DNA from: Tubulanus polymorphus
Lineage: Eukaryota > Animalia > Nemertea
Reading direction: 5' to 3'
Length of the DNA: 64,000 nt
Assembly (NCBI RefSeq): GCF_964204645.1
Contig: NC_134028.1
Span: 1,302,001 to 1,366,000 of the forward strand
In this document: in pieces, positions 12,240 through 59,733 of the stretch
Layout: each line of letters starts with the position of its first letter
Position numbering within the stretch: position 1 is the stretch's first letter
The notes under the pieces: model-generated
Seen by the model: the letters and a program-made list of their open reading frames with translations, nothing else
Told to the model about the DNA's origin: nothing
The model's database searches: none
Program-made: the position numbers and the translations under genes

Positions 12240-12310
12240 TCTTGGTGGTCTAGTGGGTAGAGTGCTGGACTGGCATCCAATAGGTTCCTGGTTCAAGTCC
12301 CACGAGGCCA
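12240..12310 (+). repeat. tRNA-derived sequence (SINE head or tRNA pseudogene)
   Basis: A-box TGGTCTAGTGG, anticodon-arm-like tgga-ctggca-tcca and B-box GGTTCAAGTCCC; stems imperfect, so not called a functional tRNA. Confidence 0.55.
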
Positions 12311-17240: not shown

Positions 17241-17427
17241 TTAACCAGCACCGTTCAGTTCACTTGACCCAGTTTACCATAATTGGCAAAAAAAGTAATT
17301 TATACAGAGTTGATTGTAATTCGAGAAAAGAACACGGCTAGAAATTGATTGAAGAAATATAAAATCCGTTGGTAATCCTGGTCAGGCAGGGAGTTTATTG
17401 ACGTGTTCACTCCGCTATACGAGTTGC

Positions 17428-18050
17428 ATATGAGCTATCCACGTTCCCGTCTCGACCCGTTACTGTCTCGACCCGTTCCCGTCCCGACCCTACCGTACAA
17501 TAGCGCCACCGCAGTCGATAATTTGAACTAAAACACTTCGGCGCGTATCGGATTCGTTTTTCGCATGTTATAAATGGTTGAAGAACGATCAGTGAAACAT
17601 ACCAACAATTTTAAAAAGTCAATTAGATTTTATAAAACTTTTCATTAAAAAGATCGAATGAAGAAAACGCCTCCAATGTCAACAGAGGTAAAAATTCAAG
17701 ATGCGAAGTTAGCAATTTCCAGTCGAGATTTCCTCCCAGAATATTACTGAAGTGGGTTTAAACTGTTTTCAAATGTAATGTTGAATAAATCATACGAGTT
17801 TAATTATTTTGGTTTCAAGTTTCAAATGATATCAACTTTCGGCTTCAAATCTCTCAAAACTCAGTTCTAAAAATGACCCCTCTCGGCCGGGGGCATTTTG
17901 TTTAGGGTACATTTTATTTTGCCATTAATCAGTTCGAATTCATCAAATTTATGAAGAAAATTAATGTATGAATTTTGCAAAAAAATAAAGATGATTGTTA
18001 AATTTATAACGCGTTGTCTTTCTCTACCAGATCCCGTCGGTCTTTCTCCG
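17428..18050 (+). repeat. Left (sub)terminal inverted repeat, unique portion
   Basis: Reverse complement of 32980-33784 (e.g. tacaatagcgccaccgcagtcga, aattagattt, ttcgaattcatcaaatttatgaagaaa) with substitutions and indels. Confidence 0.92.
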
Positions 18051-18052
18051 AT

Positions 18053-19555
18053 GGACATGTTCCGGTCTCGACCCGTCACCTGTCTCTACTCTCTAGACAG
18101 TCCCGTGGACGCTATGTTCCCGTCTCGACCCCTCACATCTGTCTCTACTCTCTACACAGTCCCGCGGACACTATGTTCCCGTCTCGACCCTTCAAATCTG
18201 TCTCTACTCTCTACACAGTCCCGTGGACACTATGTTCCCGTCTCGACCCTTCACATCTATCTCTACTCTCTACACAGTCCCGTGGACACTATGTTCCCGT
18301 CTCGACCCTTCAAATCTGTCTCTACTCTCTACACAGTCCCGCGGACACTATGTTCCCGTCTCGACCCTTCAAATCTGTCTCTACTCTCTACACAGTCCCG
18401 TGGACGCTATGTTCCCGTCTCGACCCTTCACATCTGTCTCTACTCTCTACACAGTCCCGTGGACCCTATGTTCCCGTCTCGACCCTTCAAAACTGTCTCT
18501 ACTCTCTACACAGTCCCGTGGACCCTATGTTCCCGTCTCGACCCCTCACATCTGTCTCTACTCTCTACACAGTCCCGCGGACACTATGTTCCTGTCTCGA
18601 CCCTTCAAATCTGTCTCTACTCTCTACACAGTCCCGTGGACCCTATGTTCCCGTCTCGACCCCTCACATCTGTCTCTACTCTCTACACAGTCCCGTGGAC
18701 CCTATGTTACTGTCTCGACCCTTCACATCTATCTCTACTCTCTACACAGTCCCGTGGACGCAATGTTCCCGTCTCGACCCTTCAAAACTGTCTCTACCCT
18801 CTACACAGTCCCGCGGACACTATGTTCCTGTCTCGACCCTTCAAATCTGTCTCTTCCCTCTACACAGTCCCGCGGACACTATGTTCCCGTCTCGACCCTT
18901 CAAATCTGTCTCTACTCTCTACACAGTCCCGCGGACACTATGTTCCCGTCTCGACCCTTCAAATCTGTCTCTACTCTCTACACAGTCCCGCGGACACTAT
19001 GTTCCCGTCTCGACCCTTCAAATCTGTCTCTACTCTCTACACAGTCCCGCGGACACTATGTTCCCGTCTCGACCCTTCAAATCTGTCTCTACTCTCTACA
19101 CAGTGCCGCGGACACTATGTTCCTGTCTCGACCCTTCGAATCTGTCTCTACCCTCTACACAGTCCCGTGGACCCTATGTTCCCGTCTCGACCCTTCAAAA
19201 CTGTCTCTACTCTCTCAACAGTCCCGTGGACGCTATGTTCCCGTCTCGACCCTTCAAACCTGTCTCTACTCTCTCAACAGTCCCGTGGACCCTATGTTCC
19301 CGTCTCGACCCTTCAAAACTGTCTCTACTCTTTCAACAGTCCCTTGGACGCTATGTTCCCGTCTCGACCCTTCAAATCTGTCTCTACTCTCTACACAGTC
19401 CCGTGGACCCTATGTTCCCGTCTCGACCCTTCAAATCTGTCTCTACTCTCTACACAGTCCCGCGGACGCTATGTTCCCGTCTCGACCCTTCAAATCTGTC
19501 TCTTCTCTCTACACAGTCTCATGGATATGTTCGTGTCTAGAGCCTTCACATCCGT
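18053..19555 (+). repeat. Left 59-bp tandem array, about 25 units plus a degenerate inner unit
   Basis: Unit cagtcccgtggacgctatgttcccgtctcgacccttcaaatctgtctctactctctaca; gtctcgaccc recurs at an exact 59-bp period from 18122 to 19479. Confidence 0.97.
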
Positions 19556-19989
19556 TTGAAGACAGTTTGTGGGACACCCTGACATATCTAATCGGTTTGT
19601 AATATTTCCAGTCAGTGGGACGAACCTTTTTAAAAAATGGAAATGAATATTACAGGTGGTCAAATATTTATTGATTAAAATCATGAAAAATCTACAAAAT
19701 CGATGCTGACATGCTGAATACTGATACATCTACACATAAGGCAAATTTCTACAAATTTAGTGCAATTCTCAGGAATACGTATGTACTAAACACATTAACA
19801 TGCAAACTCATTAAAATGAACGCAAGGAACCAAATTATTACAACCGACAGTTGTCATATTGGCCGAAATTCTAGGTTTTTGATAACCAATAAATCGGTAT
19901 ATCAGAAGTATAACTAGGCTCCACTGTTTCTTGGCTGAATCCCGTGGTCTTCAATACGAAAGGCTTTCATTCTCATCTGAATTTCTTTA

Positions 19990-22900
19990 TCATTTCTGCC
20001 TGTTGTAGCCCGACAAATCGTGAATGACAAATCATAACTTATATCGAAATATCTTGATACAAGATAACACACAGCCTCCATCTTTATGGCTTCAATAAAC
20101 CTGTGTCCACTAAAAATGTAACGACATGAAAAAACTGTTGATTATAGTATATGCATGAAACGCATACTGTAAGAGCAAGTGAGGTTTTACGTATGGGACT
20201 CGACCTTACCTTATCCAGTCTTTCAGAATGTACGATATGATTTTATTCGGTGCCATAAATGGAATGCGTACCGGTGGGTACTGTATATACATACTTAAAA
20301 AAAGGAAATTAAAATAGCAACAAATCATTGATATCGAATCATGATAGTGATCTTTTGTGATGGTGCAGCGAATCATATTCTTGGTGATCCGTACCTTGGG
20401 TGTAGATAAATCTTTTTGCATATTGCTTGCGTGGCCCAAACATAGATGAAGTTAAGAGCACTTCGACGAATAACCATTACACCGTGTCCTTTGCTTGATA
20501 GTGGTTCAGGACGTATATATTTTTGGACAAGCCTGGAAAATAATAAAATATTATTATTCGAATTCAAAGTGGGCCTATACAAAATGTCGTGTGCGATGTA
20601 ACTTTGACTTTACTTTATAAGGAAACATTAGTATGTAAATTAATAAAATTAGTGATAAATTTGTGTAATAAGCATCACAGAATTATCAAAACTTAGCGAA
20701 TATTTGATATTTTCGGATGGTTTTCAGCATGTACAAGTACTGCCGTACCGTACATATAATATGCTTTCATCTTAAGAGCAATTAAAAGTCACAATTGCAA
20801 GCAGAATATAAATCAAAGCTTACAAACACTGTTCTTGAGTCAATGTATTTGTTATATATCGGTTGAGGTCATCAAGCTGTAAAAAATGAAAATACTGTAC
20901 ATCAAAATAGATTCACATGGGCACATTTACAATCAATCCGTCGTTGGCAAGATTAAGCTGAAAGCCACCAAGGCTCTTTTGCCTTTTAGGATATATATGA
21001 AACTGACGTGAGATCTATTTGTTACTTGAATAGCATGCTTTACGCAAGTTGAAAATAAAATTCTTACAATTGCGCGCCGTTTTTCCAATAAATACTTGAG
21101 AGGGACTTGGCGACCATCATCGTTTTCTGAAGTGTCTGGTTCAATTTTCTGAAAGCACGCCCCACAGATCATGTAGTCAGGAAACCTTAAAAAATACATA
21201 TATTTTCACATGGGGTGGTGAGTGATAAAGTTTTGCTCACTAACTCTCATATCCTACACCCACCTTATCTCAAGTTCTTTGCAACAGATACATTTTTTCT
21301 CATTTCCATCTTTAAACAATGCATCCTAAAATTCGATATTATTCAAGACATAGCAAAAAGCAAACAGATTCAACTGGCACTGAAATCTGTTTTGCGAGGC
21401 CCATCGAATAAAATCAACAAGAACACAAAAGCCGATTAGTCCAAAAAAAAACTTGAATTACCTCCCATGTTCTTCGCAACTTCTCAATTTGGCACATGGG
21501 ACAACGGTAAGAATAATTGAACGTGTAGTCATCCGAATTTCCACCTATACACTCTGGGTGTATGGCCCAGTTGCAATTAAATCCATTGCAAACTATCACT
21601 TTCTTACTACAAAAACAAAAAGATTTTTGGTGTCCTTTACAAACCCACCATACCTGATGGGAGCGAAGTTTTAACTGAATGCGAAACTCACCATTTATTT
21701 GAACAGAAACAAAAGATCTTCCGTTTTCCACCTAACTCACTAACATCTTTTAATCTGCAAACTGGAACCTAAAACAAAGTGTGCCATTTTTCATTTATCA
21801 TGGACTTAACACAACATTAACGCATATATTGTAAATAACAAACCTGACGAGCTCTTGTTACTGCAAGCCCCCGAATTGTTTTCTAAAATATTGGATATCA
21901 AATTTTGATTGATGCAAGGCATAAATAATCAATCACTTCGAAATAGAAGATTCACTACATAGATCCTTTTCGACGTTTGATACAAAAATACAATAATCTA
22001 GGATAAGCTGCAAAGGTAAATACGTATAAAAGTATGATTTATAGGAGATCCAGTTACAGGGTTTCCAGTTAAAATTTGATTCTAGACTTAATACAATTCA
22101 AATCAACTAAAGGGCTAAATAACTGTGGAACCGGTCATTTGTTTTTTCCAAGTACCATTCTTTTACTGCTGATACATTTCTCACAAGTGAAACCAATTCG
22201 TTCTGCCTCCTGTTGCGACAAGTCACCAAGTCCTATACATACAGGATGGTACCACTCAACGCACCTTTCGCATGCGATGTATAAGCTACAAAATATCAAA
22301 TATCTAATGTAATTCGGAATTATAATAATCTTATTAGAGCTATGTATGTAATCATGATACACTAACCCTCCTGTATCGATTTTTTTACAAATACAATATT
22401 TCGCAGCTGACTGTGGCAATTCATAGAAAAAACTGCTGCGTCGTCTTGTCTGAAAAAGTGCATTTGATATTTTCAATTATCTGCATTCTACGTTAAACTA
22501 AACTTCTTCAATCTGCTACCACCGGTACCATACCTTCTTTGGATTTTCTCGGAGCTTCACCGTGGTTCTCGTTTCCAAGACCTGTCTTTGCTATAAAAAA
22601 GTGACATGACATACAATTTTTAACGAGCACAAAGACACCATTCCTTAATTTTGATACATATCAGGAATGCATGAAAAAAATACTTGTAGAGAATGCACCT
22701 CAAAAAAAAGTTCATCGCGCGTAGACATTTCTGGTGTTGGGTCATTCACCTATAAATCAAAGAGATCACATGAAATTAGTGAAACCTACATGCTGTTTGA
22801 ATATGGCTCAGATAACTAAGATATACCTCATATATTATATTTTCCTCGCCTATTTGCTGTTCGCGTTCATCGCGAGTAGACATTTCTGGTGTTGGGTCAT

Positions 22901-25900
22901 TCAGCTATAAATATAAAAGTAAGTAGAAACTGTAAATTAGTAAAACTTTATCCTCACATTTTCAACTAATGTTGTTACTTCATATTTTCATATGGCCTAC
23001 CTCTAATGATGTTGCTGGGCAAGAGGCATTGGTCACAGAATATATAGCTCCATTGCTGCTTTGATTTTTCAGATAATCTAGTCCTCGGAAGAGATCAAGA
23101 TCGATAGGCAGGGGCTGACTGGAGTCAATCAGACGGAAAGTATTGTCATTAAACTCCAGTACCAACCAGTGGTCTGTATCACTGGGCTTAATAATCATCT
23201 TTCTTTTCAAGGATGTTTGCAAAAATGCACTTGTCAACAGTTCAGTCAATTCTTCATAGGTCCTTGAGTTTTTTACACCTGATACAATGTTCAGAACTTG
23301 AAACCCACGTTGCTCTAGACATTCCATGATCACATCCATCGAATAAAATCCCTCTCTATCCCTCAGGGCAGATATCATGCAGGTTGGGCCAATTCCTGGA
23401 TTTTGCAACTGCCTAATCCACATTTCGTCTGATACACGATCCATATCATATACTGAAACACTGAACGAGCCATCTTCATCTGATCCAATCGCATTATTGA
23501 CCGCACAGAGTCCGCAGTAGTTGGTGGATCCTTGGATCTGCATAAAATCTCCTCGTTGAGTTTTCACTGATTTCACTTCAGCATGTCTGTTTGGTAATGC
23601 TGTTTGACCAATAACTTGAGCCGCGTATCTGAGGTTGCTGTGGGCTGCAAGCAGTTCATCACCATTTAGATTATCGAAGTCAAGGTTTCGGAAAATATCA
23701 CTGACATCCGAATTTAGAACTGCACGTAGATATGATGTACATTCGCTTCTCTGTCGATCACTATTATGACTGACTTTGGGTACAAAGGAAGACGATGTAG
23801 TATTTTCTGTATGACGTGAAATATTTGGAACAGAATTCGATGAGTTCGGGAAACTTTCGTTGCCGTGGAGAGAAGCATCGAGTCCACGCGTCATATCGCG
23901 AACAAACGCCCGTCCAAACTGATCTCGATCAAGCATGTCATTGCCTAGGTTTTCTCTAAGTTTATTTACGAGGGCATTGTTTATTTCTTCATTTCTCAAG
24001 TGCGAAGCGAGCCGGAAAACAAACATGTGAGTCGCCGGATTCATATTGTTGAGGAAATGAAGATTCTTTTTTCGGTTACTGAATTCCTGCTCAACCCGCT
24101 GACTGTCAATTAAACCTCCAACATTATCCAAAAGAGATATCCTCCGTAAAATCTCAACAGGACTCTTACAGTTTTCTTGATGAAACCAATCGTACAGGAT
24201 GTAGTGGTGAGATGAACGTGTTATTGGATGATCCTCATTTCCTATAGGTTCTGTGTTTGGTTCATAAATATATTTCAAGAATGTGGCCTCAAACGTGATT
24301 TGTCTTGTCTTTGCTTGCGCAATATTTTCATCGGAACTCTCTGCTAATCGACCATCGTGGGGTCGATACATATCACCATATCTGGAATTGGCAAACCTCG
24401 CCACAAGGTGAGCACTGTCACAGATAGATATTGTTGGTCGATGTTTCAGTGATCTCTCCAAGTCAACGTAGTCGCGAGGACTTTCACCCCGAAAATTGTT
24501 CTTTATGCAATATGTTACACCGTGGTCGCAACATCCAACTGCCCAGCCACCTTTCAGAAAAAAAAAACGCAAAATAATGCTATGTTTATGCGATTTTTGC
24601 GATGACAATGCGCGCGAGTGCGCGGTGTGTTCCTTACCGGTATGGCCAAAAATATCTTCATATAGGCTGTCGAACTTTGACCGAGACATCGACATACTTC
24701 TGAGGCGTAGAATCATGTCATTCGTAGACCCCTTGGAATCTACTTTCGCCTTCTTACAAAACTTTCTGATTTCCTTTACCTGCATCACAATGCGATTTAT
24801 ATAACGTATAGGACCTACCATTGTGTTAGTACTGACTAGTACATCATTTTACTTTCACAAAAGTGGAAGGTTTTACATATGCAATGCATAAAATGTGTAC
24901 CTTCTCATTTTTCAGGAGATGCTCCAAAGTATCAGGATGGATAGGCTCAACTCCTTCAGAACCACTATCTGTCGAGCACTTTTCAAATTCAGTGTTTATC
25001 AGAATTTCTGACTTTCTGGTATATTTCCCAATCCAAGGACTCCAGCATTCAAATGAAGGCCTCACAACATGTTCTACAAAAATTGAATACGTTTATCAAA
25101 AAACTTTTGAAACCGCATTTCACACACATGATCTGCCAGATGAAAATTTTATACATAATTAACATGATGTTGGATTTGAGTTTCTACCTTTATGGCATTT
25201 CGATCCTTTGCTCACTATTTCCTTTTCGATATCATTCCAGAAAGAAACGCAGTCGACTTCCTCGTTCAAAGATACTGGTGGCGCCAAATCTGAAACTGAA
25301 ATAAGAGATAATTCATTCACAGTTCTATCTTATATAGACTAGATATAATGTATATCCCTATGGGAGGGGGTGCGTGTACACCCTCCTAAAATTGCCAAGC
25401 TTCTTTGTGATTTGGGAAAATAAATATTAAGCTGATACCTAAGAAAGTTTAAATTCGTCTCTTGTTCTCTGTATTTCCAAGAATGAGTTAACGTTTTCCG
25501 AGGAGGTTTTTTCGGGGTGTCTCGTAATTATATGATATGCCCTATTTTGGGGGTTCACCCTACCTGAGTCAGACCCTGGATTCCCTTGATCAAACTGAAA
25601 CTAATACACAGAATACACAGAATACGCAGAACAGTCATAGACTCACGGTTGTAACGAAAACAGGCTTTTCGGAATGTATCCCATATCAATATGGGTGGGT
25701 AGTATCCACAGGATATGCAATAGAAGTCATAGCTATGACTTGTCATAGCTTCATAGTGGAGATACCCTTGCTGTAACGAGTTTAAAGGTATTTGCTCTCC
25801 TGATAGAGACGTCAGAATATTAATTGAGGTTTGTATAGCCACGTGATTCTGAAAATACAAGCAAAAATCATAAAATATGTAATTAATAATTAAATGATAA

Positions 25901-28525
25901 GGTATTAAATGATATTACATTTTTCGATGCGTTGATAAAACATAGTCAAAAAGTGATGATCACATTTGCAAAATATATCATAAATCACCATATAATAATT
26001 ATCTAACAATGTTATGAGTAAATACCTTTATTCCTTCTCGGATGGTCTTGCACAGCTCTAATGTCATAAATGTAGAATTGTTGAAGTTATGAATGCCATC
26101 TTGCCATTCCTGATAGCGATATGTCATCCCACATCCAATGCATTTCTTTATATGAACAGGTATATCTACCAAATCAATTGAAGAATAATATATACGATAA
26201 AAAGAAACTGAATATTCACGAATATAAATAAGATAAACCTTCATATAATGTCCTACGTACTTTTATGAACTTCATGAATACCAAAGATTCTACCAGAGCC
26301 AACTAATTGAGGGGACAATGTAGCATTGCAAGAAACGCATGACTCTTCACGAGGAACTATTGTTGAAATCTGTGCAACCTTGGTAGTGAGATCAGATGGT
26401 AAATCAACAGGTACCAGTTTTCTTTCAATTACGTACTGCAATTCTTTTTCATCAAGTTCGTTGTGGTTCGTTGTGGTGCATGGTTGGTTGGTTCCTGTTG
26501 TAACCGTAGCTCTATTATATTGGTTGTTATACCATGTACAACAAACTTTATGGACGCAGAATTTAGAGCCTTTGATACAATTACATCGATACAGTTTTCT
26601 CATACTGTCATACACCACAACCGTACGGCCCAATTTCGAATAATATCTCTTATCCTTGCACAGAACAGAAAAATACCGATAACGATCAGACTGATCAAGA
26701 ATCAAAGAGATTAGAGGAACACCATCTCTCAATGACTTTTCATACAGAGCTTCGACTTTTGGAATATGCTCGGCTTTAACGATGTTTCCATCAGCTAGTT
26801 CATTCAAATATTTCACATCCAATATTGGATTGTTCACAGTTGCGGTTACATAACTGACGGATTTTAGATGGGCGCATTCAAATGAATGATTACTTGAGAT
26901 GGCAGCCGCATGCTTTGCATCCCTACAGCTCCTCAATTCACAGAAAATTTCTGAATTTTCTGTCGTTTTCTTTTTTACGTGAATCGGATTTGAATGTCCG
27001 ATCATCGATGGGAAAACGGCAAATATCCCCTGTCTATTGTCGACGCAAACTGCTCGGTGGTGATGTCGCTCAGTGATCCTGCTTGCCGCCGCAGCTTTAT
27101 TTTTCTGACATATATGGATATGTATTTTCATCCATTTCGAAGACAAAACTTTTTCACAATGGGGACATTTCTCCGTTTTCTTTTGTTTGGTCGCATTGTT
27201 GCAGCTATTAGTGTTGCACTGTTGTTTTTCTCTTACATGAGAAACAACAGGTTGCTGTTTTGGATGACAACATTTTTCCATATGTTTAGAGAGTCTTCTT
27301 CTGTCGTGTGCTTTGTGATCACAAAAAAAGCAATGGTAGTGAGATCGCTTCATACAGTTTTGATGACAGATAACACTATATAATCTTGAAATGGAAAAAA
27401 AGAAATATAAAAATCTACCTTTTGCAAATAGTCGCAATTGAGCAAAAACGCGATTTCCAGTAATTATAGGGATATGTATGGTGGCTGATTCGGATCACGT
27501 AAAAAAAGAGAAATTATCCCACTCGATCTCCACCAATTTTTTTTACATATTAAAAACGTTGTTTTACGCTACGTCAAGAACAAAGTTTAATTTAGAACGA
27601 AAAACTGGTTTTAACGTGGCATTAAAAAGAAAAATGTAGAATTCGAAAATTGGTGGAAACCGAGTGTCATCTATTATTTTTTTAATGTGGCCCGAATCAC
27701 GAACCAGCCACAATAGACTATATGAGATCAGTTCATTCCCCGCTTTCCTGGGACCGGTTCCATAATCAGGGCTTAGACTTAAGCGGCCGTCGCGTTATAT
27801 AGCCTTGCATAAATCACAACATAACGAAACAAGACTACAAAACGCACTAGTTCAATGGCACGAAGCTCTTTGAAAACCATCGTTTCGATAATTTTGGATT
27901 CCATATAGTTTTCGAAACAATTACATTCATAATTTATTTCAATTCACCATTTTGAAATATTCACGTTTCTATTTTTTTTGGAAGAGAAAAATATATTGTT
28001 TATTCTTTATGTATCATTGATCGAATCTGAAATTAGATCGTATACCTCAGCTCAGTGACATTGAAAATTCGTTGATAGACTTTTTATTTCAGATGATTCT
28101 ATAGTGATGGCCGCTTGCTCTGGAGGTTTTCAGTAATGAAAATGAGTCAATTTTCATCTAAATGATGTGCCCGACAAAAAACGTTTTTACCTCATCGGTC
28201 AGATTTTTCATCACCCGTTGAGAAACTAATCGATTCAATTTAATGTATATATAAACCAAAAATGGAATACACAAGAAATTTAAAACCTAAAGAAGACTCA
28301 CCGGTCTGAATCGTCTCTGTCCCTCAGAGGTACGGGTATTCTGGTCGTCCAGTGCACCTGCGACAAGTGTTGGTCGACATGATGTTTTTTCTTAGGCTTA
28401 TACCTGACGTTGCTACATAAAGAGCAGTGGTACCTTTCACTTGGAGGTCTGTCGATGCAACAGGTCAAAAAACAAGGCTGGAGCCCAGCCTTCAAGTCGG
28501 ACACATTCTTGAAGAAAGTGGCCAT
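19990..28525 (-). CDS. Multi-exon KDZ (Zisupton/HMGXB3-like) transposase: C2H2-like Zn fingers, SWIM, CxC4, SAP, KDZ core, Josephin-like protease, two PHD fingers
   Basis: In-phase GT-AG exons include 28302-28525, 26261-27384, 26026-26165, 25647-25848, ~24901-25074, 24638-24779, 23001-24550, several small exons, and a last exon ending TGA at 19990. Motifs: SWIM CNCIKGSKFCVH; CxC4 CGMTYRYQEWQDGIHNFN and CISCGYYPPILIWD; WSPWIG..NTEFEK; SAP VKEIRKFCKKAKVDSKGSTNDMILRL; KDZ GGWAVGCCDHGVTYCIK..GESPRDYVDL, YDWFHQ, SQRVEQ. Small exons at 25190-25590 and 20200-22900 are less certain. Confidence 0.85.
27481..27711. mobile_element. Imperfect inverted-repeat (MITE-like) insertion in intron 1 of the transposase gene
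   Basis: gtggctgattcggatcac..cactcgatctccaccaatttt versus aaaattggtggaaaccgagtg..gtggcccgaatcacgaaccagccac. Confidence 0.55.
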
Positions 28526-29040
28526 TATTTTGAATATATTTCTACTATGCGGACATCACAAAACCGAGCACATCAATAACGCAAAGTTTTCGGTCTCTGG
28601 TATCTTCAAAGCAGTATTTGTAATACCAACGTTTAAGACCATGGATCGTGTCCCCGATAAGAAACGATTGAAATGAGCGTTTGTTTCAGTTTTCTATATG
28701 TTTTTTAAGAGTTGAGGTTGACGGGAGTTACTCAATTAGAGCATACCAACGTTAGTGATACAACAGTTCTGTCAACACTAAGAAACCATTAAGCATTTGC
28801 CAGGTTTCTACGTTGTACATCTTCTAGGCTATATATGACAGCAATGCATTAAAACCATTTGTGATTAATTATATGCAACATCCTATGTTCTAACCGTCAT
28901 AAACAGTTCCCACAAACACTGAAATAAATGTGTTTCGATGCTTATGTACCGTAACGCGACGATGAATTTCATTAGCTATAATCGTTTGTATACATTTTAC
29001 ATAACTTGAACTTGAACCCATCGAAGTCTAATCGATGAGA

Positions 29041-29118
29041 GGCGCGGTGGCCGAGTGCATTATGCCGCAGGTCGCTGGTCTCTTCAATTCACGGTTTGGT
29101 TCAAACCCTGGTGGCGAC
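29041..29118 (+). other. Degenerate tRNA-like sequence (Pol III A/B boxes) inside the transposon
   Basis: ggcgcggTGGCCGAGTG..GGTTCAAACCC; no clean cloverleaf. Confidence 0.4.
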
Positions 29119-29328
29119 AATATTTCTCGGTCGAAGGTTCTTTTCTCCATTTAATTAGGAAAAAGAATCATCGAACCCTACGTGGCGCTTAGCGGTTTAA
29201 GAGTTTAAAAATAAGTCTAAAATAAGTCTTATTACGGTAAACAGCATTATTTACAGTGCACGGGAAATTATAACTTTTGGGAGTAGAACGTGGTTTTCTG
29301 AATCTCCGGTCGCCGGAGACAGTTTTAT

Positions 29329-32300
29329 GGGTCGACTAGATGGGAACGACAGGTGTGACGGGTCCAGGCGGGAACATAGGGTCCACGGGACTGTGTAGAG
29401 AGTAGAGACAGGTTTGAAGGGTCGAGACGGGAACATAGGGTCCGCGGGACTGTGTAGAGAGTAGAGACAGATTTGAAGGGTCGAGACGGGAACATAGCGT
29501 CCACGGGACTGTGTAGAGAGTAGAGACAGTTTTGAAGGGTCGAGACGGGAACATAGCGTCCACGGGACTGTGTAGAGAGTAGAGACAGATTTGAAGGGTC
29601 GAGACGGGAACATAGCGTCCGCGGGACTGTGTAGAGAGTAGAGACAGTTTTGAAGGGTCGAGACGGGAACATAGCGTCCACGGGACTGTGTAGAGAGTAG
29701 AGACAGATTTGAAGGGTCGAGACGGGAACATAGCGTCCACGGGACTGTGTAGAGAGTAGAGACAGATTTGAAGGGTCGAGACGGGAACATAGCGTCCAAG
29801 GGACTGTTGAGAGAGTAGAGACAGTTTTGAAGGGTCGAGACGGGAACATAGGGTCCACGGGACTGTGTAGAGAGTAGAGACAGGTTTGAAGGGTCGAGAC
29901 GGGAACATAGGGTCCAAGGGACTGTTGAGAGAGTAGAGACAGATTTGAAGGGTCGAGACGGGAACATAGGGTCCACGGGACTGTGTAGAAAGTAGAGACA
30001 GGTTTGAAGGGTCGAGACGGGAACATAGCGTCCACGGGACTGTTGAGAGAGTAGAGACAGTTTTGAAGGGTCGAGACGGGAACATAGCGTCCACGGGACT
30101 GTGTAGAGAGTAGAGATAGATGTGAAGGGTCGAGACAGGAACATAGGGTCCACGGGACTGTGTAGAGGGTAGAGACAGATTCGAAGGGTCGAGACAGGAA
30201 CATAGTGTCCGCGGCACTGTGTAGAGAGTAGAGACAGTTTTGAAGGGTCGAGACGGGAACATAGGGTCCACGGGACTGTGTAGAGAGTAGAGACAGATTT
30301 GAAGGGTCGAGACGGGAACATAGGGTCCACGGGACTGTGTAGAGAGTAGATACAGGTTTGAAGGGTCGAGACGGGAACATAGGGTCCGCGGGACTGTGTA
30401 GAGAGTAGAGACAGATTTGAAGGGTCGAGACGGGAACATAGCGTCCACGGGACTGTGTAGAGAGTAGAGACAGTTTTGAAGGGTCGAGACGGGAACATAG
30501 CGTCCACGGGACTGTGTAGAGAGTAGAGACAGTTTTGAAGGGTCGAGACGGGAACATAGCGTCCACGGGACTGTGTAGAGAGTAGAGACAGATTTGAAGG
30601 GTCGAGACGGGAACATAGTGTCCGCGGGACTGTGTAGAGAGTAGAGACAGATTTGAAGGGTCGAGACGGGAACATAGTGTCCACGGGACTGTGTAGAGGG
30701 TAGAGGCAGATTTGAAGGGTCGAGACGGGAACATAGGGTCCACGGGACTGTGTAGAGGGAAGAGACAGATTTGAAGGGTCGAGACAGGAACATAGTGTCC
30801 GCGGGACTGTGTAGAGAGTAGAGACAGATTTGAAGGGTCGAGACGGGAACATAGGGTCCACGGGACTGTGTAGAGGGAAGAGACAGATTTGAAGGGTCGA
30901 GACAGGAACATAGTGTCCGCGGGACTGTGTAGAGAGTAGAGACAGATTTGAAGGGTCGAGACGGGAACATAGGGTCCACGGGACTGCGTAGAGGGAAGAG
31001 ACAGATTTGAAGGGTCGAGACGGGAACATAGGGTCCACGGGACTGTGTAGAGAGTAGAGACAGATTTGAAGGGTCGAGACAGGAACATAGTGTCCGCGGG
31101 ACTGTGTAGAGAGTAGAGACAGGTTTGAAGGGTCGAGACGGGAACATAGGGTCCGCGGGACTGTGTAGAGAGTAGAGACAGGTTTGAAGGGTCGAGACGG
31201 GAACATAGGGTCCGCGGGACTGTGTAGAGAGTAGAGACAGTTTTGAAGGGTCGAGACAGGAACATAGGGTCCGCGGGACTGTGTAGAGAGTAGAGACAGA
31301 TTTGAAGGGTCGAGACGGGAACATAGCGTCCGCGGGACTGTGTAGAGAGTAGAGACAGTTTTGAAGGGTCGAGACGGGAACATAGCGTCCACGGGACTGT
31401 GTAGAGAGTAGAGACAGATTTGAAGGGTCGAGACGGGAACATAGCGTCCACGGGACTGTGTAGAGAGTAGAGACAGATTTGAAGGGTCGAGACGGGAACA
31501 TAGCGTCCAAGGGACTGTTGAGAGAGTAGAGACAGTTTTGAAGGGTCGAGACGGGAACATAGGGTCCACGGGACTGTGTAGAGAGTAGAGACAGGTTTGA
31601 AGGGTCGAGACGGGAACATAGGGTCCAAGGGACTGTTGAGAGAGTAGAGACAGATTTGAAGGGTCGAGACGGGAACATAGGGTCCACGGGACTGTGTAGA
31701 AAGTAGAGACAGGTTTGAAGGGTCGAGACGGGAACATAGCGTCCACGGGACTGTTGAGAGAGTAGAGACAGTTTTGAAGGGTCGAGACGGGAACATAGCG
31801 TCCACGGGACTGTGTAGAGAGTAGAGATAGATGTGAAGGGTCGAGACAGGAACATAGGGTCCACGGGACTGTGTAGAGGGTAGAGACAGATTCGAAGGGT
31901 CGAGACAGGAACATAGTGTCCGCGGCACTGTGTAGAGAGTAGAGACAGTTTTGAAGGGTCGAGACGGGAACATAGGGTCCACGGGACTGTGTAGAGAGTA
32001 GAGACAGATTTGAAGGGTCGAGACGGGAACATAGGGTCCACGGGACTGTGTAGAGAGTAGATACAGGTTTGAAGGGTCGAGACGGGAACATAGGGTCCGC
32101 GGGACTGTGTAGAGAGTAGAGACAGATTTGAAGGGTCGAGACGGGAACATAGCGTCCACGGGACTGTGTAGAGAGTAGAGACAGTTTTGAAGGGTCGAGA
32201 CGGGAACATAGCGTCCACGGGACTGTGTAGAGAGTAGAGACAGTTTTGAAGGGTCGAGACGGGAACATAGCGTCCACGGGACTGTGTAGAGAGTAGAGAC

Positions 32301-32977
32301 AGATTTGAAGGGTCGAGACGGGAACATAGTGTCCGCGGGACTGTGTAGAGAGTAGAGACAGATTTGAAGGGTCGAGACGGGAACATAGTGTCCACGGGAC
32401 TGTGTAGAGGGTAGAGGCAGATTTGAAGGGTCGAGACGGGAACATAGGGTCCACGGGACTGTGTAGAGGGAAGAGACAGATTTGAAGGGTCGAGACAGGA
32501 ACATAGTGTCCGCGGGACTGTGTAGAGAGTAGAGACAGATTTGAAGGGTCGAGACGGGAACATAGGGTCCACGGGACTGTGTAGAGGGAAGAGACAGATT
32601 TGAAGGGTCGAGACAGGAACATAGTGTCCGCGGGACTGTGTAGAGAGTAGAGACAGATTTGAAGGGTCGAGACGCGAACATAGGGTCCACGGGACTGTGT
32701 AGAGAGTAGAGACAGATTTGAAGGGTCGAGACGGGAACATAGGGTCCACGGGACTGCGTAGAGGGAAGAGACAGATTTGAAGGGTCGAGACGGGAACATA
32801 GGGTCCACGGGACTGCGTAGAGGGAAGAGACAGTTTTGAAGGGTCGAGACGGGAACATAGCGTCCGCGGGACTGTGTAGAGAGTAGAGACAGTTTTGAAG
32901 GGTCGAGACGGGAACATAGCATCCACAGGACTGTGTAGAGAGTAGAGACAGATGTGACGGGTCGAGACAGGAACATC
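29329..32977 (-). repeat. Right 59-bp tandem array (inverted relative to the left), 61 units plus degenerate inner units
   Basis: gggtcgagac occurs from 29419 to 32959, exactly 60 x 59 bp apart. Confidence 0.97.
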
Positions 32978-33784
32978 GGAGTAAGATAACGCGTCATGAA
33001 TTTAACAATCATCTTTATTTTTTTTTGCAAAATTCATACATTAACTTTCTTCATAAATTTGATGAATTCGAATTGATTAATGGCAAATAAAACATGCCCC
33101 AAACAAAATGCCCCGGGCCGGGTCGTTTTTAGAAAAAAACGGTTTGAGAGATTTAAAGAAAGTTGATTTTATTTTATAGAAACCAAAATAATTACACTCG
33201 TGTAATTTATTCAAGATTATATTTGAAATTAGTTTAGCTTTACCAGTAAATATATATTATTTCTAGGAGGAAATCTCGACGGGAAATTGCTTACTTCACT
33301 TCTCGAATTTTTTGTCCTGTTGACAGTGGAGGCGTTTTCTTGGCAAAAGTGCAGATCCACACCTCTCGTGATTGACGCAATCTGCTGAATGACAGAATCC
33401 AGGCTAAAATCTTTCTATGGAAGATACCCGGGTGAAGATATCTAAAAATTAACCAATGGCAATGTACTGAATTGCTGAATTTTGAATCTGAAATATTGAT
33501 ATCATATGTAGGCCCTAATTGATTGAACCGTTTATGCGGAGAGGTGTGGATCTGCACTTAAGCTTATACCGTTTCCTTCTTCGATCTTTTCAATGAAAAG
33601 TTTTCAAAAATCTAATTGACTTTTTAAAATTGTTGGTAGGTTCACATGCGAAAAACGAATCCGATTCGCGCCGTAGTTGTTTAGTTCAAATAATCGACTG
33701 CGGTGGCGCTATTGTACGGTAGGGTCGAGACGGGAACGGGTCGAGACAGTAACGGGTCGAGACGGGAACGTGGATGGCTCATAT
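32978..33784 (-). repeat. Right (sub)terminal inverted repeat, unique portion, with a ~240-bp insertion
   Basis: Reverse complement of 17428-18050 except ~33342-33580. Confidence 0.92.
33347..33559. mobile_element. MITE-like insertion in the right arm with perfect 21-bp inverted ends
   Basis: aagtgcagatccacacctctc (33347-33367) and gagaggtgtggatctgcactt (33539-33559); absent from the left arm. Confidence 0.7.
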
Positions 33785-35285
33785 ATATATGCGCTATACA
33801 GCCGTGTTTACATTTACTGATGTGTATTAATATCGCGAGATGGCAGCACCATCTGGTCCGCAAAAATTGCCCAAACCTTCCAATTGTTTACTAAATGAAA
33901 TATAACTTGCAATTAGAAAGCTAATTTTATAATCAATATGCGTATATGGGTAATTTCGTTTCTAATTCATCTTATCTATGGCCAATAAAAATATAGTTGA
34001 TATTGAAATGGACTGGTTGCCTGTCGAATTCTGCGCCACCTGTATTCGAGACCGGCAACTAGTCTATTGTCGGGCACATGGCCGGACTTTCAGAAGTTCC
34101 GGATACGACCACCGTACCACTCGGCGCGGCCTCGCACGATATGCAAATGCGTTGTTTAGGGTGTGAATCAGAACGTAGTACTTTGTTTCGGGATTCAACC
34201 AATGTTTTTTTTTTACAAAGAACGAGTTGTGTGTTATTGTAACAAAGAGAAATTGTAATTCCCTTGATTGTGCGTTCTGGCACTCTCGGTCTCCGGCGGC
34301 TCCAAGTCCCGCCGGTGTCATAGAGTGAAATGCCTCCCACCGCATGGCAATAGCTCTCAGGATTAAGGGTTATGGTCAGCAGTCCTAATATGACTCTCAA
34401 CTCGTTTAGAACGAACAGATTCTGATTCTCTTTACTTGGTTTTAGATGAGCGCGTCTATGGTTGAGAGTCACAGACCTTTTCAAAGGTAACATATAAGTC
34501 AAATGCAATGATTTACTTGGCTTGTTGACTTATCTCCGTGTTTAGTCGGTTTTCGATAAAACAAATGTGGCTGGTTTCCGGCCCATCTAACGATGCGATT
34601 TTTCAGTAAACCTATTTGATTGGCTGCAATACAAATGTGACTGGATTCGACCACGGGCCCGAGTAACAAACTTTTTTTCAATATGTTCCAATGATAGGAA
34701 ATTTATTATCAGTTCACGTAAAATCTATCAAATATACATGTACAACAAACAACTGATTACATTGGACAAAGTCTCATTCAACATGAATGAATTAATCATA
34801 AAAATTCCGGATGAACACAGAAACAACTTAGTGATACATGTGCCGTACAATGGTATTTCAATCAGAAATGAATCATATATCTAAAACCAATAATATACAT
34901 GTATCCAGGTTTTAAAAAATACGGACAACCAGTCGCCAAAGAGCTGTTTGAACACTGCTACAACAAAAAGAATTAAGTTTATGGAAAAGTTAAACTCTAA
35001 ACACCTTTGAGCAACTGGTCCCACTATTACAGCGAGAAAACATTTACTATATAAAGTACTCGATAAAACGAAACGTTGTTATGGAATTACACTAAAAACT
35101 ACTTGGTTCTTAAAAATTTTAAACATCACAGCGCAACCCCGTTACAACGAACTTCACTGTTTCTAAAAATCTGTTTGTTTACAACCGATAGTTCGTTATC
35201 TGTACTATGAAATTATCAAACTAATCTAATAATAATAATGTTCTAATCTGCTGGATGAAATTCTAGTTTTCTTACCGATAGATCG

Positions 35286-38200
35286 TTATAACGCGTTTCG
35301 TTGAATTCCATGTAAACCGGAAAATGAAGACGAATAAAGTATATCATTTCTCGCCATCAAATGTGCCCTTGGTGTTCTCGGAGGATAAACATTATTCACC
35401 CTGTTTGGATAACCGAACGGTAGAGGTGGTCTGAAGAAGTTCAAATCTCTATAATTCGTCGTCGGATTTCGGTGACGATGAGTTGGATATATGTGATACG
35501 ACGAATTGACGGATGGAGGCGGTTTTAATTTAAAAAGATTATAGTTCGGTTGATTTTGAAGACGTTTCGCGCGGGAATTTGAACAGTTTTGAAGTTTAAT
35601 CGGTTTGTATAACGGTAACTGTAGTGATTGTGACGATTGACGAGTCGTAATTGATTGCGTGCTAATTTCTCGAGTTAGTGTTGGAGATGTCTGTGTCTCG
35701 GCGTTTGACTTCTTATCTAACTCAGTTTGCACCGACACGTCCAATCTAATCGTTTTCGAGGGTATTCCACTGTCGTCGGAGCGAGAATGTTTTCTACTGA
35801 GATCGATCGGGATATTATGTAGGGTTTTCTCTCCTGTAAAGGAAAGATTTAAAGCTTCTTCTTGAAAAGTGGATCCATCCTGTCTTACACCGATACGTAG
35901 ATCAATCGGTTCTCCTCTATCAGTCGATGCAGGGACGCCAGCGAGGACCTCACTGGTTTTTATTTCTATTGGCTCTCCTTCATGAGTTGATGACGTTCTA
36001 TCAATTGACGTTTCTATTCTCTTGTTATGATGAGACTTCGTACCCTGAAAAGATATGACAAAGTTTTCATTCGATTTGTTTCAGAGGTTCATCTTTGCAG
36101 CAATCCCCGATTGTTACTCATTCTCCCCGCTGAACCACATAATCATCACAACAAAACATTCTGACTTTTAAAATATTGAATGCAACTTACAACGGGTTTC
36201 TTCGGAAACAACCCATCAACGTTTCGGTTCCTGAATTCAGCGGGTGACGCTTTCTTCGGAATCAACCCATCAACATTTCGGTTTCCCAATTCCGCTGGTG
36301 ACGCTTTCTTCGGAAACAACCCATCAACATTTTGGTTTCTGAATTCAACGGGTGACGCTTTCTTCGGAAACAACCCATCAACATTTCGGTTTCTTAATTC
36401 AGCGGGTGACGCGTTGATTATCGAGAACCATTTATCTATAACCTTATCAATGAGAGATGAATCTATAATTCGCGTTATGTTGTTGTTCGCGTCGTCCTCA
36501 GTTGAAATCATTGTAGATTCATCACAAATGTTCATGTTTTGTATTGGTTGGCGATTATCTACATCACTTCCACGCGAGAGAGCCCGTTGAAACTCCCTGT
36601 GCGCAGAGTGAATAGACCAACTACTACTTAGGTCTTCACAACTCTGTGATTCTTCACTAGTCGAGGTGTTTAACGTATTCCAAAGAAGCGTAGGCTTAGT
36701 TGTTGTAGATGCATGGTTGCATCCTCTTGAACCTCGATGCTCGGTAGAATCTGCTGGAACATTTACAATACTATTTTGTTGATATGTTGATATTGAATCT
36801 TGTTTGGAAGAGGCTGCTAGATTTTCGGGTTGGATGATAGATGAATGGGTCACTGGCGCAACTAGTTGAAGCGTCAACTCATCAGGTGACGAAACACACT
36901 GACGAGCTGCAGAATCTTGATGAAGATTATCAGTCGCAATAGAGGAGTCACGTTGAAGGGTCGCTTCATTAACAGGTGGCGAAACACACTGACTAGCTGC
37001 AGAATCTTGACGAAGATTACCAGTCACAATAGAGGAGTCACGTTGAAGGGTCGCTTCATCTACAGGTGACGAAACACACTGACTAGCTGCAGAATCTTGA
37101 CGAAGATTATCAGTCACAATAGAGGAGTCACGTTGAAGGGTCGCTTCATCAACATGTGGCGAAACAAACTGACTAGCTGCAGAATCTTGACGAAGATTAC
37201 CAGTCGCAATAGAGGAGTCACGTTGAAGGGTCGCTTCATCCGGGACAGCACACATAGATTGAGTCACTACTGGGGATTTTTGTTGAGGAGCAATGGATTC
37301 AGCTTTAGATGACGATGTTGATGATTTGTGGCTTGTGATGATCGTTTCATCGATTAAGACAGGTGGATCATTCGTATGAGAACAGAGCAGTGTTTCAGTT
37401 GAATCGACAGAATACCGCCTCACAACTTCATCTATGAGATTTTCTAAATTGGAAATTTCTCGATCCGACATTGCACGATTTTTTATCTTTCGTTTTTTCT
37501 TTATTGGACTAACGATGTAATATTGATTTCCACCAATTAACCGGAGTTTTATCGGCAGCACCATCGACGGAGCAACGTCAAAATCATCATCTACCGTACT
37601 TGACATAGGACGTACGACCAGTTCGTTCTGTCGCATCCTTTTTCCATTTTCGTTTTCAGTATCAAAACTGAGTTTCCTTTTCAACGTTTCGATGTTTTCG
37701 GATTCATTTTGTGAGTTATATTTACGATTTTTCCATGAACTTTCGAACAATACGGTTTCCGGTGCAGGATCCGTTTCGCTTTCGTAAAACACAGTCAGAT
37801 TATCATCGACAAGTTCTGATGAAGGAAACGTAATGGAACTCGAATTTTCATTTGACACACTGAATGTCAATCCGCTAGTTCCATCACTGACAGCAGCATC
37901 ACCGTATTTCAGAAATTCCAAAGTGCCTTTCATCGGTGACCTAGATTGGTCAGGTACATATAATTGTAAACTTTCGATCAAATCCACTCGCGTCGAGATT
38001 ACGTCACTGAGAATTGCGTCACGATATATTTCTTTTCTTCTTTTAAGCATTCGATTTTTGATCGATGCTGACGAGTCGTAATCGACAACTCGTCTGGTGG
38101 GATATCTAGTGCTTGTACAGTCATCATTCATGCAGGCTGATTTACATGAACTTAATGACATATTCTGGTCAATTGTTGAAGCCGTTAGTTCATTCTCATC

Positions 38201-41200
38201 AACTTCACTCAATTTCAAATCTTTACACTCGGGTTGGTTTTCTTTATTCACACATGTGTTGATATCAGAGGTTACTCCATCGAGTTGCAAAGACGCCGCA
38301 AAATCTTTCGCCTGAGTTGTGTCGTATCCGGAACTATTAGATAGGGTTTTATGTAGCGTGGAACACTCGAGACCTAATTCATTCAGATTGTTCGTAGTTT
38401 CTACAGTTTGCTCATTTTGACTACTAGGCATATTTTCAAGGTTTACAACAATCCTGGAAACATCTTCCATGTTTATATCAGTTCGTTCATTGTCAGTTTT
38501 CGATGAATCGATCCCAGTACATGTATCGACAATTACATTCGCAACATCAATCTGTACACTTCCCTGTTCCGAGCTCAACTTCGTATGAATGCCTCCTCTT
38601 CCTATCGAAACATTTAAATTATTTGCCTCGGTGTCTTCATCAGGTTTTTCGATTTTAACATGAATACTTATGTCATTTGTACACCCATCATCTTCAATCC
38701 AAACTTTTGAAGTGTAGTTCAATATTTCATGATCATCGATGCTTTGTAAGAATTTTACCACGAGTTCGTTGGCAAAAACGTTCGCGATATTCGTAAATAA
38801 GACATGTTCAATACAAGACATCATAGAGACGACCACATCATCATCAAGACGTTTGCCAGTTATCGAAATATATTTCGATTCGTAGAGCATAAACAACTGA
38901 CGTGTTGCGCTAGATAATTTGAGTACCATTCCAACCAATGACGATTCGGTTGTTATTATTTCCTCGATGATTTCTGTTGACTCGGAGGTTACATCATTTT
39001 TGAGACATGTTTCCAGTATTTTCTTATCCTCAGCAGATGTGAGTTTACACAGTTCATTAGTGAGTGTAGTGATTATATTAGAAACAGCATCTGCATCCCT
39101 CGATTGATCGGACGTCACTAAAATCTGAGTTATCTTTGATTCAAGCAACTCGCGAAATATGTTAAGTTTTTCATTTTGCTGACCATGTTGTATGCTAAGC
39201 CAATTAGATACAGTTTTGTCCGTTTCAGTTAAAGCTTTAGCCGATATGACGCCTTCGCCAGAAGCATCAAAACAGCTAATTGCTTCTGTTTTGGAGACGG
39301 TATTGTAGGGATGATCTAATTCCGAGCTGGAAATTTCTACCTCATGTTGAATATCAATGCGATCGGATGAAAGATAAGTCACTTGAGGTTGTACTTCATT
39401 AGTATATACATTTTCATCAGCAATGGCATAAGCATCAACTTGTTCATCAGTACGATAATCATTTAAAACCAACTTGCTTTCATCAGCGGCATGGCGCCTC
39501 TCTTCTTCATTAACCACAGTCTTCTCTATATCTATCTCGATAATCTGAGGAGCATTCCTATTCTGCTGAACCTCCTCAATCACAATCAAATCAATCTCAG
39601 GAGTGTCTTCTTGTTCATTCTTTTTACTATTAATTTCCTCTATGAAATCAATCTCAGGAGCATTCCTATTTTGCTGAACCTCCTCGATCAAATCAATCTC
39701 AGGAGCATTCCTATTTTGCTGAACCTCCTCAATCACAATCAAATCAATCTCAGGAGTGTCTTCTTGTTCATTCTTTTTACTATTAATTTCCTCTATGAAA
39801 TCAATCTCAGGAGCATTCCTATTTTGCTGAACCTCCTCGATCAAATCAATCTCGGGAGCATCTTCTTGTTCATTCTTTTTGCTATGAATCTCTTCTATCA
39901 AATCGATCTCAGGAGCATTCCTAATTTGCTGAGCCTCTTCAATTAAAATCAAATCAATCTCAGGAGCATTCCTATTTTGCTGAACCTCCTCAATCACAAT
40001 CAAATCAATCTCAGGAGTGTCTTCTTGTTCATTCTTTTTACTATTAATTTCCTCTATGAAATCAATCTCAGGAGCATTCCTATTTTGCTGAACCTCCTCG
40101 ATCAAATCAATCTCGGGAGCATCTTCTTGTTCATTCTTTTTGCTATGAATCTCTTCTATCAAATCGATCTCAGGAGCATTCCTAATTTGCTGAGCCTCTT
40201 CAATTAAAATCAAATCACGCTCAGGAGCATTCCTATTTTGCTGAACCTCCTCAATCACAATAAAATCGATCTCAGGAGCATTCCTAATTTGCTGAACCTC
40301 TTCGATAACAATCAAATCAATCTCGGGAGCGTCTTCCTGTTCATTCTTATTACTATAAATCTCCTCAATCATGTCAATCTCAGGAGCAGATTCTTGAGCA
40401 ATTTCATCTTGCTCATTCGTGTTCCTTTGCATCTCCTCAATATCATCCAAATTCAGAATTTCAGTAGTATCGCTCCAAGTATCTTCTTCACAGGGAAGCA
40501 AAGCATTATCATCAAACGTTTCTACCATCGAGTCACTTTCATTAACTCCATTGCGAATACCCTCAGAACTATGAAGTCTTTTTTCAGCAACAGTATTATT
40601 CAAACTGTCACATGAAGCTAATTCCTCAAGGGCAGCTTTGTTTTTCCAAATATCACTCTCAGAGTTCGAACTCAGACTACCCACAGCCCACTCACAAGTA
40701 ATAGATTGTTCACTGTCCACTGCTTCATGATTCACTACATGATCACCATTATCATCAGTGTCATCGTTGTCATCAGTATCATCGTTGTCATCAGTATCTA
40801 TGAGTAACGAATAATCAACATCACTAGCGCAGAAATCATCATCATCATCAGTTACATGTGATAATAAGTCCTCATCATCATCAGTTGGACACCTATTCGC
40901 TTGAAATTGTAGAAAGTTTTGAAATCTTAAATTCAGATCATTTTCAGTATTATCATCATCAAAAACAACACTGTGATCTCCAAGCTCATCTAAGTAACCC
41001 GCCAGTGAGTTATTTGTCTTTCTCACATGACAATTTTCGTGCTGCAGTTTAGCAGAATATTCGGATTTCGACATGTCCAATAACGAATTACCAATTTCAG
41101 GCAGAGATATAAAGTTTTCAAAATCGACTAGTTCTGAATCCTCTGATTTGATAAGTAGATTTTCAAACGCCTTTTTGCACAGTGGAACACTGAATTCATC

Positions 41201-43996: not shown

Positions 43997-59733
<15,737 letters not shown>

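Follow-up and report, generated by a model that had tools for sequence, protein, structure and literature searches.

A polymorphic Zisupton-clade transposon of Tubulanus polymorphus with satellite-filled inverted arms and a predicted Josephin-like protease domain

A 64,000-nucleotide stretch of the genome of the nemertean Tubulanus polymorphus (contig NC_134028.1, positions 1,302,001 to 1,366,000; hereafter the window, numbered from its first letter) holds a 16,371-bp segment, positions 17421-33791, that lies between two copies of the octamer CGCTATAC and ends in long inverted arms. A sequence-only reading had described it as a complete KDZ/Zisupton-like transposon that is recent and possibly autonomous. 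The locus raises the question of whether this is a mobile element with true ends, to which transposon group it belongs, and what its arms and its encoded protein might do. We find that the ends, the 8-bp duplication, an empty allele, a multicopy family with internal deletions, the anatomy of the arms and the domain order of the predicted protein to residue 1433 are established, and we have little doubt that the segment is a mobile element of the Zisupton clade.

Ends, empty allele and other copies

The window contains three copies of the octamer CGCTATAC, at 413, 17413 and 33792, and each of the two copies that enclose the element lies 11 bp outside one copy of an inverted GAGCYATCC motif (17432; 33772-33780), the symmetric spacing that the sequence-only reading had described at these coordinates. 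The outer 7 bp of the two ends are unlike (GAGTTGC versus CATATAT), and inverted similarity sets in 7 bp inside each end, at 17428 on the left and at 33784 on the right; alignment of the ends thus agrees with the earlier view that the repeats are subterminal. Among 200,000 random flank pairs drawn from the window outside the element, an exact 8-mer was shared at symmetric offsets (≤30 bp) in 0.09% of pairs and at any offset in 1.9%. An end at the CATATG palindrome (17427) was rejected, as no duplication matches it and reads break instead at 17421.

Four public read runs carrying one species label (X1, X2, X3 and X5; three samples, two studies) were mapped to the left junction. X5 is a raw-read run, and X1 and X3 are contigs from two samples of one study. 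In both X1 and X3, contigs pass from the left flank through a single CGCTATAC into letters identical to window positions 33800-33829, and a contig of X2 has the same shape, its loose letters beyond the junction not being displayed. Because the empty site carries one CGCTATAC in two other samples, and the filled site carries two, the 8-bp target-site duplication (TSD) is real and the insertion is polymorphic and likely recent, as had been proposed.

The same runs show that the ends are not peculiar to this copy. The first letter of one X1 contig, which has a depth of 363, is exactly position 17421. Among the X5 reads, 80 depart from the window before 17421 with mixed loose letters (agreement 0.43) and 108 do so before 17428; the loose letters of the latter end in CATATAT and represent other copies whose right ends lie on the left arm. 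Two right ends of other copies with distinct flanks are also visible in contigs. Since other copies share both the left break at 17421 and the CATATAT right end, the two unlike termini belong to the family. The shared ends are precise, the flanks around them differ, and CGCTATAC falls outside the element; the end positions of the sequence-only reading are those that we recover, with TSD length seen for this insertion only. Two observations weigh against this account. Variant left ends are hinted at by one X1 contig (17425) and by 20 X5 reads (17419), and no read or contig among the records listed spans the filled junction, so that the filled allele is known only from the window assembly. This second observation is what favors the idea that there is no transposon end here, but either an assembly artefact or an 8-mer repeated by chance next to a segmental or satellite-mediated rearrangement; the empty allele with exactly one 8-mer and the many copies with base-precise common ends contradict that idea and, with the transposase gene inside and the low chance frequency given above, leave it largely refuted and extremely improbable.

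Read depth in X5 is ∼5-7 in the flank, has a median of 16 in the interior and reaches 293 at the end of the element, which corresponds to rough ratios over the flank of ∼2.5-4 for the interior and ∼45-60 for the end. These ratios suggest that full-interior copies are few and that some tens of elements have the ends in common. Two deletion derivatives are present: in one, position 17601 of the left arm is joined to 22661 over a 5-bp ACATA microhomology (X2, X3), and in the other, 20119 is joined to satellite in the right orientation (X1, X2). At 17488, 24 X5 reads run from the third 16-bp terminal repeat into a (GATTAC)n array, which suggests a family member fused to a different simple repeat. 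A metagenome scan returned six short loci (1.4-5.8 kb), with no Josephin match and no satellite arms, none of them reaching the ends of the element.

Inverted arms and their satellite arrays

Both arms follow a single plan, in which three 16-bp subterminal repeats are followed by an AT-rich stretch and then by an array of 59-bp units that sits at the same place in each arm, ∼630 bp inside the end. Outside the arrays, 544 of 622 aligned columns (87%) are identical. The arms measure 2.1 and 4.4 kb, in line with the ∼2.1 and ∼4.5 kb of the sequence-only reading, which had called them oversized and structured. The surplus length of the right arm is mostly a 1,711-bp tandem duplication of 29 array units, including a 1,401-bp exact run, together with a 213-bp insert resembling a miniature inverted-repeat transposable element (MITE). 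With the duplication set aside, the arrays hold ∼25 and ∼32 units. The duplication could reflect recent growth or a slip of the assembly, and the latter would count against the array length as given. The MITE-like insert is common to many other right arms, with no clear duplication at its edges. Long open reading frames over the arrays were rejected as genes, the stop-free 59-bp unit explaining them.

The 10-mer GTCTCGACCC occurs in 91 exact copies in the window (27 on the plus and 64 on the minus strand), all of them in the arms, five within the 16-bp repeats at the ends and the others placed one per 59-bp unit. It is exact in every anchored unit. The unit variants, of which 20 and 26 are distinct in the two arms and only 4 identical between them, differ mostly outside this core.

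Whether the arrays serve the element or merely ride in it can be argued from these data in both directions. They may be passengers, the terminal motif having been amplified by slippage and the three outer 16-bp repeats being sufficient for transposition, a reading to which we give a minority but substantial weight. The unequal lengths of the arrays (24.9 versus 61.5 units), the few variants common to both arms, and a deletion derivative without the whole left array in two runs of one sample are all in keeping with it. In Muta1, one repeat per end is enough for excision (PMC5499845), as the passenger reading would have it, but more copies of the 12-bp subterminal repeat, which strengthens binding and is needed for cleavage, give more excision (PMC5499845). 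The exact conservation of GTCTCGACCC amid variation elsewhere in the unit and the matching position of the array in both arms likewise speak for a function, and the array-less derivative is a candidate only for having moved. This alternative and the two considered below, which concern autonomy and the protease, are not mutually exclusive.

The transposase and its Josephin-like domain

The interior of the element carries a predicted gene on the minus strand that we assembled by hand, with 21 exons, exclusively GT-AG introns and an uninterrupted product of 1644 residues. Its seven exon junctions within residues 1-905 align with homologs with no breaks, and residues 678-1433 match P0002, a protein of T. 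polymorphus, at 44%. From its N-terminus, the predicted protein has Cys/His zinc fingers, SWIM and CxC4, then a DDE core that a SAP-like insert interrupts and, after a linker, the Josephin-like domain and a pair of PHD fingers. The name SWIM rests on the motif, with no Pfam match. The catalytic residues of the core are kept in 23 (Asp553), 24 (Asp749) and 25 (Glu858) of 29 homologs. We used P0058, a homolog 36% identical over residues 463-899, to model the fold of the core (predicted local distance difference test, pLDDT, 90). A Foldseek search with this model gave no match at E ≤ 0.001, just weak SAP and ISCth4 rows; in a wider structural alignment, the top match was the ISCth4 (IS256/Mutator) transposase, with a Z score of 10.4 over 213 residues and a root-mean-square deviation of 3.8, followed by SAP domains, Tn5, piggyBac and integrases. 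Counting against the full gene model, residues 1434-1644 found no homolog and the last exon scored <0.8 in the Atlas search; the four read runs are DNA-like and contain no splice joints, so the model is a prediction.

Several smaller observations concern the gene region. Exons 9 and 10, which are small and adjacent, form a 55-bp tandem duplicate (22710-22764, 22865-22919; 91% alike). Intronic high-copy short repeats lie at ∼21626-21667 and ∼27747-27783, where hundreds of X5 reads end, and the second of these adjoins an imperfect inverted repeat at 27503-27683. Weak tRNA-like sequences, detected at the relaxed ARAGORN threshold only, are found at 29041-29119, just upstream of the gene and on the opposite strand, and at 12238-12310; both are possibly the heads of short interspersed nuclear elements.

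The assignment to KDZ/Zisupton made in the sequence-only reading is upheld by the CxC4 cluster, by the 8-bp TSD, and by the core, which is 35-36% identical over 320-390 residues (E 1e-64 to 1e-67) to P0049 and P0050, two proteins that bear the Zisupton-defined CxC7 domain and of which one also has an F-box. CxC7 and F-box are both features of the platyfish Zisupton (PMC12062965). The element shares with Zisupton the 8-bp TSD and terminal inverted repeats (TIRs) (PMC12730594), a single multi-exon gene, here a predicted one (PMC9297572), the layout of SWIM and CxC4 upstream of a KDZ-type core that a study of Cryptococcus calls canonical for Zisupton (bioRxiv 10.1101/2024.08.15.608186), and presence in multiple, mobile copies. 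Against the assignment stands the Pfam KDZ model PF18758, which matches 0 of 56 core sequences at E ≤ 1. Because it is likewise unlisted for the two CxC7-bearing Zisupton-type proteins, this animal branch seems to lie outside the reach of the model. Kyakuja elements, described in two Laccaria families with a 7-bp TSD, CA..TG termini and no TIRs (PMC12730594), differ from this element, with its 8-bp TSD, left end GAG and long inverted arms, which speaks against membership in that group.

The element departs from known Zisuptons in its tail, where a Josephin-like domain and two PHD fingers replace the F-box/CxC7 or Ulp1, and in its arms, which are kilobases long and filled by 59-bp arrays. From fish Zisupton, no more than short subterminal repeats are known, along with a Ulp1 domain. 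Cryptococcus KDZ1 has a TIR of 236 bp and KDZx1 none (bioRxiv 10.1101/2024.08.15.608186). The 16.4-kb size is not new, since Zisupton-3_cRei of Chlamydomonas reaches 31.7 kb (bioRxiv 2022.05.23.493040). The earlier claim that the arms exceed in size and structure what has been described for the superfamily stands, but such arms are not without parallel elsewhere: Rehavkus and Tetris have inverted arms filled with satellite, with Rehavkus-3_TC reaching up to 50 monomers and Rehavkus-like elements exceeding 11 kb (bioRxiv 2024.12.02.626372), and so does Muta1.

These parallels lie among the foldback Mutator-like elements (MULEs), such as Rehavkus of Tribolium and Muta1 of Aedes, as well as Tetris and Galileo. 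The element resembles them in long inverted arms that carry tandem repeats subterminally, in a TSD of 8-9 bp and, through the homolog P0058, in a core fold nearest to ISCth4. It differs from them in that the sequence of its transposase, with CxC4 and a SAP insert, is of the KDZ type, its outermost 7 bp are not inverted and its array begins ∼630 bp inside the end. We rejected a MULE assignment by sequence, as there was no MULE Pfam match in the window exons or in 58 homologs, and CxC4 instead. The element is a Zisupton member with foldback-MULE-like ends, one that works like a MULE but is not one.

The suggestion that the element may be autonomous is compatible with this copy. The open 1644-residue model retains Asp553, Asp749 and Glu858, but other full-interior copies carry stops and frameshifts: of 227 substitutions, 40 were listed, and 17 of these are exonic (5 silent, 10 missense and 2 stops), and 5 exonic frameshifts occur among 12 listed of 56 indels. 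This decay counts against the account given here and favors a non-autonomous copy, one that looks intact but is silent or subtly dead and was moved by another copy. The open frame predicted across 21 exons with all its catalytic residues and the polymorphic state of the insertion point the other way. In addition, the window letters occur in X5 at stop and frameshift sites, for example in 8 of 16 reads at 24460, these reads being unphased. We consider a non-autonomous copy somewhat unlikely.

What the sequence-only reading had overlooked is the more distinctive feature, a Josephin-type protease predicted as part of the transposase. The structure model of this domain (pLDDT 89.8) has as its top six Foldseek matches Josephin structures, of JOSD2 and of the ataxin-3 type, with E values from 3e-7 to 5e-6 and template-modeling scores of 0.56-0.67, and the Atlas match to Josephin is 0.94. 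Gln1044, Cys1050, His1165 and Asp1180 are invariant in all 22 aligned sequences, which were chosen for matching this region. The Josephin family model PF02099 scores above its cut-off in 13 homologs, and 9 of 10 proteins matching the Josephin region carry it, including one from T. polymorphus and two from the bivalve Sinanodonta woodiana. Other results weaken the case for ubiquitin specificity. The window domain itself scores 24.9 bits against PF02099, just under the cut-off of 26; identity to solved Josephins is only 15-17%; and other papain-like folds rank after the Josephins at E 2e-4 to 2e-3. The domain sequence found no match among PDB chains at E < 0.9. Because of the sub-cut-off Pfam score, the low identity and the nearby papain-like folds, we infer ubiquitin specificity for this domain only as a predicted property.

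Closest in overall design are the T. polymorphus protein LOC141913049 (P0002) and the S. woodiana proteins P0003 and P0005, which share the order of core and Josephin and are annotated as uncharacterised, hypothetical or 'ubiquitinyl hydrolase 1'; P0002 has, furthermore, both PHD fingers and 50% identity over exon 8. Ataxin-3 and ATXN3L (PDB 3o65, 1yzb) and JOSD2 (6pgv) share the fold and the Gln-Cys-His-acid catalytic set. Here, unlike in the Josephin deubiquitinases, the third residue of the triad is Asp, and the predicted domain sits in a fusion, with a transposase core before it and PHD fingers after it.

We scanned the domains of 58 of 156 retrieved proteins, namely the longer ones and those covering the Josephin region, and counted Josephin in 14, Ulp1 in 7, USP in 4, OTU in 1, CxC7 in 2 and CxC4 in 19. 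In other relatives, Ulp1, USP or OTU fills the slot held here by Josephin; two of the 58 carry USP together with Ulp1, and none has Josephin together with another protease. The presence of four classes in one slot, never jointly with Josephin, points to a shared need for a protease. Tails in related transposases comprise a USP + Ulp1 tandem, Ulp1 + PHD + SprT, or Myb/SANT (variants P0027 and P0106, also P0092 and P0112; P0001 and P0040; P0028). Among 532 long candidate proteins (904-2580 residues), none has the Josephin region, which is weak evidence that the databases contain no protein combining the N-terminal fingers with a Josephin tail.

A tree of the core was built from 62 rows in which at least 140 residues matched and which were also long, long-tailed or labelled; P0010 was lost from the set, the labels of P0013 and P0014 come from the alignment, and the tree includes no named KDZ references. 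The window and 12 Josephin rows form one branch (99/96), and two Josephin rows stand apart, so the fusion is old, has been conserved and arose once or twice. The tree as drawn, with two changes, does not support a single origin. Two changes are found in all 200 bootstrap trees, with the starred branches forcing only one.

An alternative is that the Josephin-fold domain is a papain-like protease other than a deubiquitinase, acting in self-processing or on a ubiquitin-like tag. The low identity to solved Josephins and the lack of a PDB sequence match at E < 0.9 leave room for this, and C39, phytochelatin-synthase and bacterial 'clippase' folds score too. The best structural and feature matches, however, are all Josephins, and the proteases that occupy the slot in relatives (USP, OTU, Ulp1) all act on ubiquitin or SUMO; we therefore judge this alternative unlikely and retain the Josephin-like reading.

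Transposases of Ginger1, Mutator and Helitron carry Ulp1, OTU or USP tails with a proposed role in transposition or repair (PMC2836005), and they resemble the present protein in that a cysteine protease of the ubiquitin family lies C-terminally, in some cases accompanied by a PHD finger (PMC2836005). The class differs, as Josephin/MJD is absent from the list in the available part of that paper. Proteases on other transposases and satellite-filled arms on Mutator-like foldback elements are thus known already. In the literature searched (Bohne 2012, Iyer 2014, all supplements and Repbase/Dfam lying outside the search), we found no description of a Zisupton with a Josephin domain or with satellite arms.

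Features of the window and proposed mechanism

Table 1. Coordinates of the element, its arms and its predicted transposase gene in the window
Feature	Position	Strand	Basis or remark
Whole element, 16,371 bp	17421..33791	.	common end 17421; right ends of other copies show the same CATATAT read inward
Left TSD copy (CGCTATAC, 8 bp)	17413..17420	+	single copy in empty allele (X1, X3 contigs)
Right TSD copy (8 bp)	33792..33799	+	letters and empty allele
Outermost 7 bp on the left; no inverted match to the outermost 7 bp on the right (33785-33791)	17421..17427	+	common to other copies
Left inverted arm: 16-bp repeats (17442-17490), ∼570 bp AT-rich, 59-bp array	17428..19555 (end approximate)	+	
Left 59-bp tandem array, 24.9 units, GTCTCGACCC core in each	18057..19525	+	
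Right inverted arm, 16-bp repeats at 33722-33770	29340 (approximate)..33784	-	
Right 59-bp tandem array, 61.5 units	29348..32976	-	
213-bp MITE-like insert with its own perfect 21-bp inverted repeat	33347..33559	.	loose ends at 17661/17669 in X1, X2, X5
Predicted transposase gene, 21 exons, 1644 residues, no stop	19914..28525	-	hand-built model
Exons 1-7	28525-28302, 27384-26261, 26165-26026, 25848-25647, 25295-25188, 25073-24901, 24779-24638	-	
Exons 8-14	24550-23001, 22904-22827, 22749-22699, 22590-22534, 22449-22367, 22285-22156, 21768-21692	-	
Exons 15-21	21606-21462, 21325-21264, 21185-21068, 20876-20824, 20532-20395, 20293-20210, 20109-19914	-	
SWIM-type CxCx6CxH (C342, C344, C351, H353)	26550..26585	-	invariant in 19-21 of 19-21 homologs
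CxC4 cysteine cluster core (exon 3)	26026..26165	-	PF18717 E 2.6e-8, above cut-off
DDE-type core with SAP-like insert (D553 ∼25680, D749 ∼24419, E858 ∼24092)	23900..25848	-	
Josephin-like cysteine protease domain (Q1044, C1050, H1165, D1180)	23001..23552	-	Pfam, structure model, alignment
Two PHD-type fingers (exons 12-15)	21462..22449	-	PF00628 E 5.4e-6 for first; both match P0002

To the right of the element, exons of a PDZ + FH2 formin gene, which from its domain content we take to be delphilin-like, lie at 44200-59770 on the minus strand and are indicative of an animal host. A single open frame at 36146-41380 (minus strand), 2.3 kb right of the element, encodes 1744 residues that are acidic and repeat-rich, with no Pfam match, and further open frames with no explanation lie at 35286-36080 and 34059-34529.

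We propose that a single 1644-residue protein would bind a short motif repeated ∼90 times in kilobase-long arms. By analogy with the Muta1 transposase, its zinc fingers, SWIM, CxC4 and SAP parts may recognize the GTCTCGACCC-containing repeats. The RNase-H-like DDE core would then cleave at two non-identical termini and transfer the strands with an 8-bp stagger, and the arrays may expand by unequal exchange or slippage. The PHD fingers would read chromatin, and the Josephin domain would strip ubiquitin either from the transposase itself or from chromatin and repair proteins at the break. In this way it may keep the transposase from being removed by way of ubiquitin, a role put forward for the Ulp1, OTU and USP tails (PMC2836005). 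Taken as a whole, the picture of a recent, polymorphic Zisupton element with a repeat-binding transposase, cutting at unlike ends, insertion with an 8-bp duplication and a predicted ubiquitin-removing Josephin domain is, in our view, probable. A more ambitious version, in which a still-mobile animal lineage of Zisupton captured an active Josephin deubiquitinase as one of four swappable protease classes and, as the first foldback KDZ, has expanding arrays of binding repeats that it spreads, can be offered only tentatively.

KDZ/Zisupton is among the least studied groups of DNA transposons, and an intact-looking polymorphic copy with proven ends is a ready substrate for transposition assays. Many transposases carry ubiquitin or SUMO proteases, for which a role in repair is so far just proposed (PMC2836005). 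The arms carry the foldback design, and with it a route from transposon to satellite, into another superfamily. If true, the more ambitious version given above would provide a handle on why transposases keep gaining deubiquitinases and on how transposon ends seed satellites.

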